DNA of 64,000 nt from Nitrososphaerota archaeon (GCA_028867755.1 JAGWFT010000001.1:516727-580726), one strand, 5' to 3'; shown: positions 42,548-46,688, counted from the first letter of the stretch. The notes: generated from the sequence alone by a model not told the origin. Translations and numbers: made by a program.

Positions 42548-42751
42548 TTGGTTGTATAATAATCTAAGTGTGGCTTTAGCATAATTGTGAATCTATCATA
42601 GAAATCATAAATCTAATAAAAAAGAAAATGTAAACATCTCATAATGCATATCATGTGTTGTTAGTTTGTAATTGAATACGTATAGTTCATTCTAATATTG
42701 TGAATGAAAAATTAGTTTACTAGATGTTGATAAAAGAAAATTTGACTTCCA

Positions 42752-42860
42752 GTTCTAGTATTTTGGCATAAATCTTAGTCCAGTCTTTGCAGATACTGCA
42801 ATTATTGATATGATTGCAATTGCAAGTACTAGAGCTGCGATCGGGCCAAACTCTGGAACT
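42752..42860. repeat. 109-bp perfect repeat, copy 1 of 4 (PEFG-CTERM coding end); extends to 134 bp (42727-42860) with copy 2
   Basis: Base-by-base identity with 44141-44249, 45064-45172 and 46054-46162. Confidence 0.97.
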
Positions 42861-44077
42861 GCAATTGTACCTACTATGTCTATAGTTGTATCTCCCTTGT
42901 GGAAGGGTATACCAAGTGTTCTACTGTTGATATTTTTTACTTCTGTGAATTGTACGTTATGTCCTCCGTCTTGTACTGTAAATGCTTGATCTGGCATATC
43001 TGCTGGGTTGAATTGTTGAGAAGTTGTTTGGTTTGGTCCTGTAGGTGTTGGTGGCAATTGTTTGGAATCGATAAGAGCTCTTGGGAGAGTTATTGATAAT
43101 GAACCATCTGATGATGTGTTAATAGTAATAGCTAATGTGGAAGGTGGTGTGGATTGTGGTCCAAAGACTTGTATATTTTGAATTGCTCCGCCCTGAATTG
43201 TGTATGGTATGTTAAAGGTTCCTATAGGGGTCTGTAATGCAAAAGTACCGTTCACTGATTTGTTAATAGTTGATGTTCCGTCTCCACCGCTATAATAGAA
43301 AGTTGCAGTAGTATTTGTGGCTGGACCATACTGTGCAATTATTGTGTAATTTCCTGCCTTTGTCCATAGTGGACCTGTTGCAAGGACTTTAGTAGAAAAA
43401 TCACCATTGTTACTTGGGATAAGTTGTGCTATTGAAACCAGGTTTTTTAATGAGTTCATAACTCTGACGGTAACTGCAGTTTGATTTGATACGTTTTTGA
43501 CTGCGCCATTGATAACTATTGTGTCGCCTTGGTTATAAGTTGGTGAACTAGTTTGTATTGAAAGAGGTGGAATGCTTGTTGCTACGGAACTACCGTTATA
43601 TTTTTGCAACAGATACTGGTATGCGTTCATGGTACCACTATTTGGATTTGATATTGTAGCATTAAGTGCGTTAGCTCCGATACCTCCTGAAACAGATACT
43701 TGAAATGTTTTAGTATCGTCTTGCCCATCCTTAAAATCCAACTCCACAGAACCAGTATAGTTTCCGGCACTTTGATATGTGTGACTAGTGGTGTTGCTAA
43801 TATTAGTAACTGCTGTGCCATCCCCAAAATTCCAAATTATTTGTTTCACACTACTACTGGTTGTATATGTAACACTAATAGTCTCCAACAATGGGGCTGT
43901 ACCAGAAGGCGGTTGTAAATTAACATTTGTGATAGAATCTGCAAATTTGGGGCAATCTCCGTTGGGACAATTTGCGTTGACTGCTTCAGCTTGTGTAGGA
44001 ATTAAGACTAGTACCGAGAATCCAAAAATTGCTATAATTGCGACTAGTGTTGCACAAAAGGCGCTTGATGTTCTCAT
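42755..44077 (-). CDS. PEFG-CTERM surface protein 1 (PKD domain + two Ig-like modules)
   Basis: Signal peptide, CPNGDCP, PKD WNFGDG...HTYQSAGNY, C-terminal VPEFG + TM + basic tail. Confidence 0.9.
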   Translation of the reverse strand: MRTSSAFCATLVAIIAIFGFSVLVLIPTQAEAVNANCPNGDCPKFADSITNVNLQPPSGTAPLLETISVTYTTSSSVKQIIWNFGDGTAVTNISNTTSHTYQSAGNYTGSVELDFKDGQDDTKTFQVSVSGGIGANALNATISNPNSGTMNAYQYLLQKYNGSSVATSIPPLSIQTSSPTYNQGDTIVINGAVKNVSNQTAVTVRVMNSLKNLVSIAQLIPSNNGDFSTKVLATGPLWTKAGNYTIIAQYGPATNTTATFYYSGGDGTSTINKSVNGTFALQTPIGTFNIPYTIQGGAIQNIQVFGPQSTPPSTLAITINTSSDGSLSITLPRALIDSKQLPPTPTGPNQTTSQQFNPADMPDQAFTVQDGGHNVQFTEVKNINSRTLGIPFHKGDTTIDIVGTIAVPEFGPIAALVLAIAIISIIAVSAKTGLRFMPKY

Positions 44078-44104
44078 TTGCTAGCCAATACTCAAGGATC
44101 ATGA

Positions 44105-44116
44105 GTATTTATGTAT
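44105..44116 (-). promoter_or_regulatory. TATA-like motif ATACATAAATAC upstream of PEFG gene 1
   Basis: The same 12-mer occurs at 46017-46028 and 46666-46677, 24-28 nt upstream of the ATGs of genes 1, 3 and 4. Confidence 0.6.
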
Positions 44117-44140
44117 TGATAAAAGAAAATTTGACTTCCA

Positions 44141-44249
44141 GTTCTAGTATTTTGGCATAAATCTTAGTCCAGTCTTTGCAGATACTGCAATTATTGATAT
44201 GATTGCAATTGCAAGTACTAGAGCTGCGATCGGGCCAAACTCTGGAACT
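44141..44249. repeat. 109-bp perfect repeat, copy 2; 44116-44249 equals 42727-42860 and 44141-44272 equals 45064-45195
   Basis: Direct sequence comparison. Confidence 0.97.
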
Positions 44250-45063: not shown

Positions 45064-45172
45064 GTTCTAGTATTTTGGCATAAATCTTAGTCCAGTCTTT
45101 GCAGATACTGCAATTATTGATATGATTGCAATTGCAAGTACTAGAGCTGCGATCGGGCCAAACTCTGGAACT
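45064..45172. repeat. 109-bp perfect repeat, copy 3; 45043-45172 equals 46033-46162 (130 bp)
   Basis: Direct sequence comparison. Confidence 0.97.
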
Positions 45173-45993
45173 ATTTGTGTACCTATGATCTCTATCTGCT
45201 CAGCTCCCATTCCAAATGGTATTGTCAAAGTTCTAATATTGGAACTTGGCATATCTGTGAAACTATCTTTTTCTTCACCATCTACTAGGACAAAGAAGCT
45301 GTCATCCTTGACACCAGCTTTTGCATCTAACACTGATCTTGGTATCTTAAGAGTTATCTGACCATCACTGGTTGCTTGTAAGTTTACAGTGAGAGTTTTA
45401 GATGAACTGCTCAGAGTTGCTCCCGTAGCTGTTCCTCCACTGATACTGTAATCAATACAATATAGTTCGTTATTTAGCGTAGCTGCGAGCTGATCTGATT
45501 GGCAACTTGTTGTTCCGCCACCACCGCCAATGCTAAACTGTGTTTGTGTTATGCGCATACCTTGTTGTATCCCATATTGAGCATAGATAGTGTATGTTCC
45601 ACCGCTTGTCCAAAGTGGACTTGCTGTATTAATTTTTGTTTGGAAGTTTCCACTACTGTCAACAGTTAACTGATCAACTTCTACAACATTACCTAATGAA
45701 TCTGAAACTCGTAATGTGACTGGCAGCCCAGGTATTATGTTTTGGGCATGTCCTGTGACAAGTATTGTTGATTGTCTATCATACGTTGTCTTGTCTGTTG
45801 TCAGACTAAGTGGTAATGTGACCGGTATTGTGATTGGCTGAACAGTTGTTGTACTGTTACCTGTCATCAAACCAGTAGTGTAATTTGCTTTTGGAGCACA
45901 ATCTGGTGGGCAGAATCCAAATGCAGGGCCAACACCTACAATGGCTGCTGTTGCAAGAATAGCGATCAACGCGTATTCTTTATGAGTACTCAT
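45067..45993 (-). CDS. PEFG-CTERM surface protein 3 (two Ig-like modules)
   Basis: Signal peptide (AFG), FCPPDCAP, TDKTTY module, VPEFG + TM. Confidence 0.9.
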   Translation of the reverse strand: MSTHKEYALIAILATAAIVGVGPAFGFCPPDCAPKANYTTGLMTGNSTTTVQPITIPVTLPLSLTTDKTTYDRQSTILVTGHAQNIIPGLPVTLRVSDSLGNVVEVDQLTVDSSGNFQTKINTASPLWTSGGTYTIYAQYGIQQGMRITQTQFSIGGGGGTTSCQSDQLAATLNNELYCIDYSISGGTATGATLSSSSKTLTVNLQATSDGQITLKIPRSVLDAKAGVKDDSFFVLVDGEEKDSFTDMPSSNIRTLTIPFGMGAEQIEIIGTQIVPEFGPIAALVLAIAIISIIAVSAKTGLRFMPKY

Positions 45994-46039
45994 TTGCCTG
46001 CGATTAAGTAGAATGGGTATTTATGTATATTTAAAAAAT
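45891..46039. repeat. 5'-end/promoter repeat of PEFG gene 3 (149 bp)
   Basis: Identical to 46539-46688 except a 1-bp indel (extra C at 46642) next to the ATG. Confidence 0.96.
46017..46028 (-). promoter_or_regulatory. TATA-like motif ATACATAAATAC upstream of PEFG gene 3
   Basis: As for 44105-44116. Confidence 0.6.
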
Positions 46040-46053
46040 GAAAAAAGTAGAGT

Positions 46054-46162
46054 GTTCTAGTATTTTGGCATAAATCTTAGTCCAGTCTTTGCAGATACTG
46101 CAATTATTGATATGATTGCAATTGCAAGTACTAGAGCTGCGATCGGGCCAAACTCTGGAACT
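46054..46162. repeat. 109-bp perfect repeat, copy 4
   Basis: Direct sequence comparison. Confidence 0.97.
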
Positions 46163-46641
46163 TTTGATATTTCTCCAGCAAGTTGGAACTGAACCTGATT
46201 AGTTCGTGCTTGCTCATTGCCCTGTTGTACGTACAAGGTGTACTGCCCATTTTCTGCCATGAGTTGACTTGATGTGTTTATTTTGGTTGTAAAGTCCCCA
46301 TTGTTGTCTAATGTTAACTGCGATGCAAATACAACATTTCCTGATGGACTAGTCACCTTCATCGCCACATCCTGGCCAGGATATGGATGTAACACACGGC
46401 CACTCACCATGATGACTGAATTATGATCATACGCTGCTGCGTCTGTCGATACCGTGATTGGTATTACATCCTGCGGTTGTTGGATTTCCGCAAGACTCGA
46501 AGTGTTACCTGTCATCATTGCCGCAGTATAATCGGCCCTTGGAGCACAATCTGGTGGGCAGAATCCAAATGCAGGGCCAACACCTACAATGGCTGCTGTT
46601 GCAAGAATAGCGATCAACGCGTATTCTTTATGAGTACTCAT
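46057..46641 (-). CDS. PEFG-CTERM surface protein 4 (one module only, 194 aa)
   Basis: Start reassigned to ATG 46641 by identity with gene 3 (MSTHKEY...); VPEFG + TM. Confidence 0.9.
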   Translation of the reverse strand: MSTHKEYALIAILATAAIVGVGPAFGFCPPDCAPRADYTAAMMTGNTSSLAEIQQPQDVIPITVSTDAAAYDHNSVIMVSGRVLHPYPGQDVAMKVTSPSGNVVFASQLTLDNNGDFTTKINTSSQLMAENGQYTLYVQQGNEQARTNQVQFQLAGEISKVPEFGPIAALVLAIAIISIIAVSAKTGLRFMPKY

Positions 46642-46688
46642 CTTGCCTGCGATTAAGTAGAATGGGTATTTATGTATATTTAAAAAAT
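46539..46688. repeat. 5'-end/promoter repeat of PEFG gene 4 (150 bp)
   Basis: See 45891-46039. Confidence 0.96.
46666..46677 (-). promoter_or_regulatory. TATA-like motif ATACATAAATAC upstream of PEFG gene 4
   Basis: As for 44105-44116. Confidence 0.6.

Follow-up and report, generated by a model that had tools for sequence, protein, structure and literature searches.

The 64,000-nucleotide stretch of a Nitrososphaerota archaeon genome analyzed here (GCA_028867755.1 JAGWFT010000001.1:516727-580726; hereafter, the window) encodes, on its minus strand, an array of four complete head-to-tail open reading frames (ORFs) for surface proteins of the PEFG-CTERM type, denoted g1 to g4 (Table 1), in which the C-terminal sorting signals are identical at the nucleotide level. 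The host is an acid-soil ammonia-oxidising archaeon of the genus Nitrosotalea, the relatives of which include Candidatus (Ca.) N. devanaterra and Ca. N. bavarica, and the genome that carries the array (G000) spans 1.64 Mb and is 99.95% complete. The ectodomains of the four proteins share only 31-38% amino acid identity, or 53% in the case of the N-terminal domains of g3 and g4, and by their sequences g1-g4 appear to be ancient tandem paralogs that encode cell-surface proteins. Comparison with related genomes shows concerted evolution that is confined to the tails of the genes within a stable array, with sharp boundaries and a slow synonymous rate; the most likely cause appears to be recurrent gene conversion.

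The exact block common to all four genes is 109 nucleotides (nt) long and consists of one nucleotide, a Val codon, the 33 codons of the tail, the stop codon and 3 further nucleotides. Four exact copies of such a block within 64 kb cannot be attributed to chance. In the ungapped register, the identity between paralogs is about 0.6 up to the Val codon, where it abruptly reaches 0.95 or more, and about 0.4 beyond the stop codon and the 3 nt that follow it. Adjacent gene pairs share longer exact tracts, the ends of which differ from pair to pair: the g1/g2 and g3/g4 tracts extend into the T-rich 3' flank, and the g2/g3 tract extends into the coding sequence of the core (Table 1). The original prediction for this locus, namely that the last 109 bp of the four genes are identical at every synonymous site and that the cores are heavily diverged, is thus borne out by the exact block and by ectodomain identities of 31-53%. 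The start of g4 was placed at the MSTHKEY sequence that is conserved in all orthologs; the ORF listing alone extends this gene to position 46725.

Table 1. Features of the array and its surroundings. Positions are those of the window unless another locus is given.
Feature	Position	Strand	Remarks
g1, PEFG-CTERM surface protein, ortholog group P435	42755-44077	-	440 aa; signal peptide, PKD domain, two-domain core, sorting tail
g2, PEFG-CTERM surface protein, ortholog group P283	44144-44995	-	283 aa; ORF and TIGR04296
g3, PEFG-CTERM surface protein, ortholog group P300	45067-45993	-	308 aa; ORF, TIGR04296, orthologs
g4, short PEFG-CTERM protein, ortholog group P190	46057-46641	-	194 aa; N-terminal Ig-like domain joined directly to the tail
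Box copy 1 (g1): sorting signal, stop codon, 3 nt	42752-42860	-	exact match in all four genes
Box copy 2 (g2)	44141-44249	-	exact match
Box copy 3 (g3)	45064-45172	-	exact match
Box copy 4 (g4)	46054-46162	-	exact match
Extension in g1/g2 only, T-rich 3' flank	42727-42751 (g2 copy 44116-44140)	-	134-nt exact tract
Extension in g2/g3 only, 23 nt of core coding sequence upstream of the box	44250-44272 (g3 copy 45173-45195)	-	132-nt exact tract
Extension in g3/g4 only, T-rich 3' flank	45043-45063 (g4 copy 46033-46053)	-	130-nt exact tract
5' block of g3	45855-46039	-	promoter-like region and signal-peptide codons, shared with g4
5' block of g4, partner of the g3 block	46503-46688	-	same basis
Radical-SAM gene, left syntenic flank	40639-42204	+	conserved in all Nitrosotalea genomes examined
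rpoH and rpoB, right syntenic flank	47004-50602	+	conserved; served as neutral-rate reference
Thaumarchaeosortase ORF	~G000 C24:1.1417-1.1426 Mb; locus L134 1429-2376	-	316 aa

All four proteins carry the PEFG-CTERM domain at the extreme C-terminus, with scores of 32.5-33.4 bits for TIGR04296 of NCBIfam (cut-off 25) and a match that stops 6 residues short of the stop codon. Hydrophobic N-termini are visible by eye. A PKD_4 domain was detected in g1 (Pfam, 9e-9), and only weak MG2/Ig-like matches were found in the other three proteins. The AlphaFold model of g2, built from 16 orthologs and paralogs (predicted local distance difference test, pLDDT, 72.7), consists of two Ig-like beta-sandwiches and a C-terminal transmembrane (TM) helix at residues 255-275; the Foldseek search with this model returned generic Ig-like folds only (TM-score 0.2-0.28) and no lead on function. 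Each array protein would accordingly start with a signal peptide, continue with Ig-like domains (one or two) and end in a PEFG-CTERM anchor, the processing of which is presumably carried out by the single thaumarchaeosortase encoded in the genome (TIGR04297, 465.3 bits, cut-off 250). In these respects the array fits the PEFG-CTERM/thaumarchaeosortase system as defined by the two families, but the family definition is silent on nucleotide identity. About 20 further C-terminal tails with the PEFG motif are encoded in the same genome, and those with any match to the box have a nucleotide identity of 76-88% with it. Given this divergence, tail identity is a property of the array rather than of the domain, and identical tails are not needed for sorting. 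Several very short contigs of the same assembly (G000 C2, C21, C28, C31, C32 and C108; 0.5-1 kb) carry fragments of PEFG-CTERM paralogs with 37-79% identity to genes on the main contigs; these could derive from a second strain or be variant surface-protein gene copies that were left unplaced.

The comparison of the array drew on 16 other published Nitrosotalea genomes, on 13 genomes from elsewhere in the family, all of other genera, and on roughly 100 additional contigs. The box is present in all 34 genomes of the genus that were searched, at 92-100% identity (this count includes five unpublished genomes, G010, G011, G017, G026 and G032, on which no other result rests). Paralogous tails from the same genome are more similar to each other (nucleotide identity 0.983) than tails from different genomes, for which the values are practically the same for orthologs (0.914) and non-orthologs (0.917), so that the tails hold no orthology signal. 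The identity of the tails within a genome is 0.97-1.00 in 15 of the 16 multi-copy genomes, and 0.95-1.00 at fourfold degenerate sites. Moreover, synonymous variants that are absent elsewhere are found in every copy of a single genome, as in G031 (five changes, each in all 4 copies), G020, G008 and G023. These genome-private variants bear out two further claims of the original prediction, that protein-level selection cannot explain the identity of the synonymous sites and that the ends of the genes are homogenised by recombination, and the boxes are indeed more similar within genomes than between them. Among 106 further loci with two or more tails from genome and metagenome collections, the mean identity is at least 98% in 80, 95-98% in 23 and lower in three, and the finished genome of the cultured strain of Ca. 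N. devanaterra contains four identical tails. The metagenome scan yielded no relative closer than 85% amino acid identity.

Tails that are this similar might have been collapsed or homogenised during short-read assembly or polishing, and both the length of the repeat, which is close to short-read k-mer sizes, and the numerous fragmented metagenome-assembled genomes (MAGs) that break exactly at the box would be compatible with such an artefact. However, the same pattern is found in over 100 independent assemblies produced with differing technologies, including single-contig genomes and the finished genomes of cultured strains, and each assembly has its own genome-specific variants, some of them in the form of partial mosaics; contig breaks at the box are, moreover, expected from true exact repeats. 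An assembly artefact, which had been named as a possible objection when the homogenisation was first proposed, can therefore be practically dismissed. Many metagenome contigs (L135, L139, L146, L177, L180 and others) measure about 1 kb and contain little beyond one array gene; the repeat is probably where short-read assemblies of this group become fragmented.

The cores of the genes behave in the opposite manner to the tails. In the 17 Nitrosotalea genomes, the best match of the core is the positional ortholog from another genome in 68 of 68 cases, and never a gene of its own genome. The order of the genes is constant in every genome (a ~190-aa gene followed by ~300-aa and ~283-aa genes and then by a 330- or 435-aa gene), with an extra ~300-aa gene in one clade, and all 16 fetched arrays have the radical-SAM gene with a 116-aa gene at one end and rpoH/rpoB at the opposite end. 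The tandem arrangement, together with the fact that g3 and g4 share both ends, could in principle reflect recent independent duplications in each lineage. However, the cores are only 31-38% identical within a genome and 69-84% identical to the positional orthologs of other species; the duplications therefore predate the genus, and their independent recent origin is hardly conceivable.

The original prediction went further and proposed that the constant ends serve as anchors that allow the variable ectodomains to be swapped, duplicated or deleted, for example in virus evasion; the shared 5' ends might likewise serve as anchors, and ectodomains might also be excised. Several features of the array appear compatible with such cassette shuffling: unequal exchange could in principle act on the 109-nt direct repeats, which are located about 1 kb apart; g3 and g4 each have identical sequence at both ends; g4 resembles a g3-type gene that lacks the C-terminal domain; and clades differ in the number of genes (4 or 5) and in the presence or absence of the PKD domain. 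The comparative evidence nevertheless does not support this part of the prediction. All 68 cores pair with positional orthologs of other species, and the order and content of the array are constant within each clade across the 17 genomes; the low identity of the paralogs implies that they are ancient and older than the genus; each copy is complete, with its own start, signal peptide and tail, and hence silent, incomplete cassettes are absent; and no chimeric cores were seen. The sole insertion seen inside an array is an insertion sequence (IS) element, a ~4.5-kb insert between the 300-aa and 190-aa genes of G020 (L049:8988-12650) with a 397-aa ORF that contains a DDE_Tnp_IS240 domain (3e-17). 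In cassette-type antigenic variation by gene conversion, as in Neisseria pilE/pilS, Borrelia vlsE and Anaplasma msp2, conserved segments likewise flank the variable parts of surface proteins and provide the homology for recombination. Those systems, however, comprise one expression site and silent partial cassettes, the content of which changes within clonal populations, unlike the array, in which all genes are complete, order and content are fixed across species and only the conserved end is transferred. Conversion of this kind homogenises and does not diversify, and the shuffling of ectodomains appears very improbable.

Intermediate stages of homogenisation are represented by mosaics, in which variants are present in subsets of the copies (G003, G013, G006 and G101). 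Across 41 arrays, adjacent copies of the tail differ by 1.47 nt and non-adjacent copies by 1.89 nt (Mann-Whitney p 0.004, for data that are not independent). Outside Nitrosotalea, arrays with their own near-identical tails were found in eight genomes that represent six other genera of the family, and five others have diverged tails. In the G018 lineage (L057, also L070 and L144), the same four-gene array is present, with tails that are only about 77% identical to each other. The G+C content at third codon positions (GC3) of the cores in this diverged-tail lineage is 0.62, compared to about 0.29 elsewhere, and conversion may have lapsed there as the compositional shift broke the homology, which makes the lineage a natural control for the loss of conversion. 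In the G013 array (L047), the ortholog of the 283-aa gene is split over two frames and a fifth gene lacks a normal start, and the tails of the broken copies are still homogenised; the breaks and the frameshift may be sequencing or long-read assembly errors.

The tails are not the only homogenised part of the array. The 46 nt upstream of g3 and g4 are 100% identical, as are the first ~102 coding nucleotides, and within genomes the first 66 nt of the P190 and P300 genes are 88-100% identical. Since 5' variants private to one genome occur in both the P190 and the P300 copies, for example an ATG codon in G013, this 5' block is a second concertedly evolving segment. The first ~32 coding nucleotides of the P190 and P300 genes are almost invariant throughout the genus, rare codons such as GCG included, and this is also the case in the lineage with diverged tails.

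Apart from being similar within genomes, the tails evolve slowly between them. The identity at fourfold degenerate sites between Nitrosotalea species is 0.82-0.85 for the tails of all ortholog groups that are present genus-wide, compared to 0.53 for the radical-SAM gene, 0.52-0.57 for rpoB and 0.46-0.47 for the cores of the 283- and 435-aa genes. A rough calculation, made without a fitted model and under an assumed saturation identity of about 0.36 that was estimated from codon usage, puts the synonymous rate of the tails several-fold lower. Between genera, identical residues are encoded by the same codon in 66% of the tail positions and in 41% of the core positions. Two single-copy genes served as controls: in gene B, a PEFG gene, the fourfold identity of the tail (0.51) is close to that of the core (0.49), and a gene with a box-like tail gives intermediate values (0.64 and 0.52, respectively). 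The slow-down is thus tied to multi-copy tails, and the values for gene B rule it out as a general property of PEFG tails. Codon optimisation was likewise rejected as a cause, the frequency of optimal codons in the tail being 0.55 with an expectation of 0.49 and values of 0.48-0.53 in the cores, and so was GC-biased gene conversion, given that the GC3 of the tails (0.15-0.26) is lower than that of the cores (0.27-0.37). In theory, conversion leaves the neutral rate unchanged and slows only the sites that are under purifying selection (reviewed in PMC3924837). The synonymous sites of the tails are accordingly not neutral. Most orthologs retain ATA ATT GCA as the codons for Ile-Ile-Ala halfway along the TM helix (G000 C24:1197763-1199172 and orthologs, L240-L256), and this retention holds even in a single-copy PEFG gene, the tail of which has the background synonymous rate in other respects.

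The secondary structure of the box offers one candidate explanation of this constraint: the box folds as a long imperfect hairpin with a minimum free energy of -32.8 kcal/mol, for which z ranges from -3.9 to -5.4 relative to dinucleotide shuffles. When the controls are synonymous recodings in which protein and genomic codon usage are preserved, z is -2.4 (p 0.014-0.018). The array-type tails of other genera have z below -0.6 in 12 of 15 cases, and the values for the remaining PEFG tails of this genome are distributed around zero. Throughout the family, the outer helix TTTGGC/GCCAAA and the central stem GCAATnAT...ATnATTGC are kept in 96-97% of the alignment cells. The measures of covariation are weaker: both sides have changed in 7 of 28 pairs, compared to 5.2 in shuffles (73 of 500 shuffles reach 7), and most pairs never vary; paired cells amount to 89.0%, compared to 87.8% in shuffles, so that pair-count measures do not beat the shuffles, and compensatory changes are few. 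The Rfam scan found no family match in the boxes at E <= 1. Tentatively, and with a probability well below even, the box might be a selected cis-acting nucleic-acid element, an imperfect hairpin of about 100 nt within the codons of the sorting signal. Such an element could act on the mRNA, through 3'-end stability, termination before the T-run or the pacing of translation of the anchor, or alternatively on the DNA, as a seed for conversion. If it is real, a constraint strengthened by conversion among the 4-5 copies would explain both the slow synonymous sites and the conservation of non-preferred codons across genera.

Purifying selection at the nucleotide level, on an RNA or DNA hairpin or on a binding site for a protein or a small RNA, might even be thought to maintain the identical tails on its own. 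The 92-100% identity of the box across the genus, with synonymous sites conserved far above the background, the long hairpin (z = -4.3 relative to dinucleotide shuffles, -2.4 relative to synonymous recodings) and the two helices kept family-wide, with few compensatory changes, would all fit this explanation. Selection alone, however, cannot put the same private synonymous change into all 4-5 copies of one genome only, nor can it erase the orthology signal; the covariation support is weak, with most pairs invariant and no Rfam family matched, and the tails have diverged freely in the G018 lineage. We consider it very unlikely that selection acts without conversion. The presence of the same box in distant species, which the original prediction would have taken to imply an RNA-level constraint in place of homogenisation, was observed in part: the box is conserved genus-wide and its synonymous sites are slower than the background. 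A nucleotide-level constraint therefore has to be assumed in addition to conversion, which itself is still supported.

Taken together, the sequence comparisons favor recurrent gene conversion that homogenises the tails while the ectodomains evolve independently, a reading to which we assign a probability of roughly 0.85. Under this explanation, the 105-109 nt of the sorting signal would be continually overwritten from copy to copy by short-tract, non-crossover homologous recombination, most likely by the RadA machinery of the host; RadA is encoded in the genome, and the dependence of conversion on it is suggested on this basis. The ends of the tracts would be set where homology ends, and because conversion would start and stop at these limits, the homogenised block would coincide with the sorting signal. 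Exchange would be slightly more frequent between neighboring copies than between distant ones. The process appears to have operated throughout Nitrosotalea as well as in several related genera of the family and to have lapsed in a few lineages, such as the one with shifted G+C content, and the ectodomains would keep evolving as stable positional orthologs. Conversion would also make selection on weakly selected sites more effective, with the synonymous sites of the tails being under some sequence-specific constraint, for which the reason can only be suggested. Three points weigh against this explanation: conversion is deduced from sequence patterns, and no conversion event was directly observed; under strict neutrality, conversion should not slow the divergence between species, so that the simple model needs the added constraint; and the cores of the P190 and P300 genes also have a somewhat raised synonymous conservation (0.63-0.68) that is not fully explained.

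Whole genes of identical function, such as the bacterial rRNA operons and the tuf genes, are known to evolve in concert. The array resembles these in that RecA/RadA-type conversion would keep the copies identical, and differs in that conversion affects only a short module, within genes that have otherwise diverged. Closer parallels are long-lasting, segment-restricted cases of concerted evolution of prokaryotic paralogs, namely mtrA-1/mtrA-2 of methanogens (PMC4632066) and a set of 26 genes (Wang and Chen, 2018, PMC6053082). The main text of the latter survey contains neither "Thaumarchaeota" nor "Nitrosopumilus". As in these cases, array paralogs from one genome are closer to each other than orthologs from different genomes are, also at synonymous sites and over deep divergence; the pattern is attributed to recurrent gene conversion, and synteny excludes independent duplication. 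The array differs from them in that the tract is only about 109 nt long and corresponds to the C-terminal sorting signal of 4-5 genes that are otherwise 31-38% identical. It is thus a very clean new case of a known process, long-lasting segment-restricted concerted evolution. No published account of the homogenisation of the array tails was found in the literature searched; the papers that mention PEFG-CTERM are silent on nucleotide identity and conversion, and the array is not discussed in the genome paper of Ca. N. devanaterra.

Two other features of the locus complete its description. Directly downstream of the array, a 116-aa ORF (42197-42547, minus strand) without a match among Pfam families is syntenic in all Nitrosotalea genomes examined, at 74-88% amino acid identity. 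Within g3, the Rfam scan returned only CRISPR-DR44 at 45681-45708 on the plus strand (27.7 bits, gathering score 35, E 0.2); there is no repeat array around it and the match is probably due to chance.

The array reveals no new mechanism of surface variation. It represents an unusually clean instance of concerted evolution on a micro scale, in which a module of 109 nt is kept across a genus and its sister genera, and it shows active homologous recombination in archaea that are hard to culture and genetically intractable, with a rough view of the length and the boundaries of the tracts. The repeats explain why MAG assemblies of this group break at the array genes, and the loss of orthology signal warns against orthology calls made from tail sequence. 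The slowed synonymous rate makes the tails a possible test case for conversion raising the efficacy of selection and hints that the region coding for the sorting signal may contain a further signal at the level of RNA or DNA.

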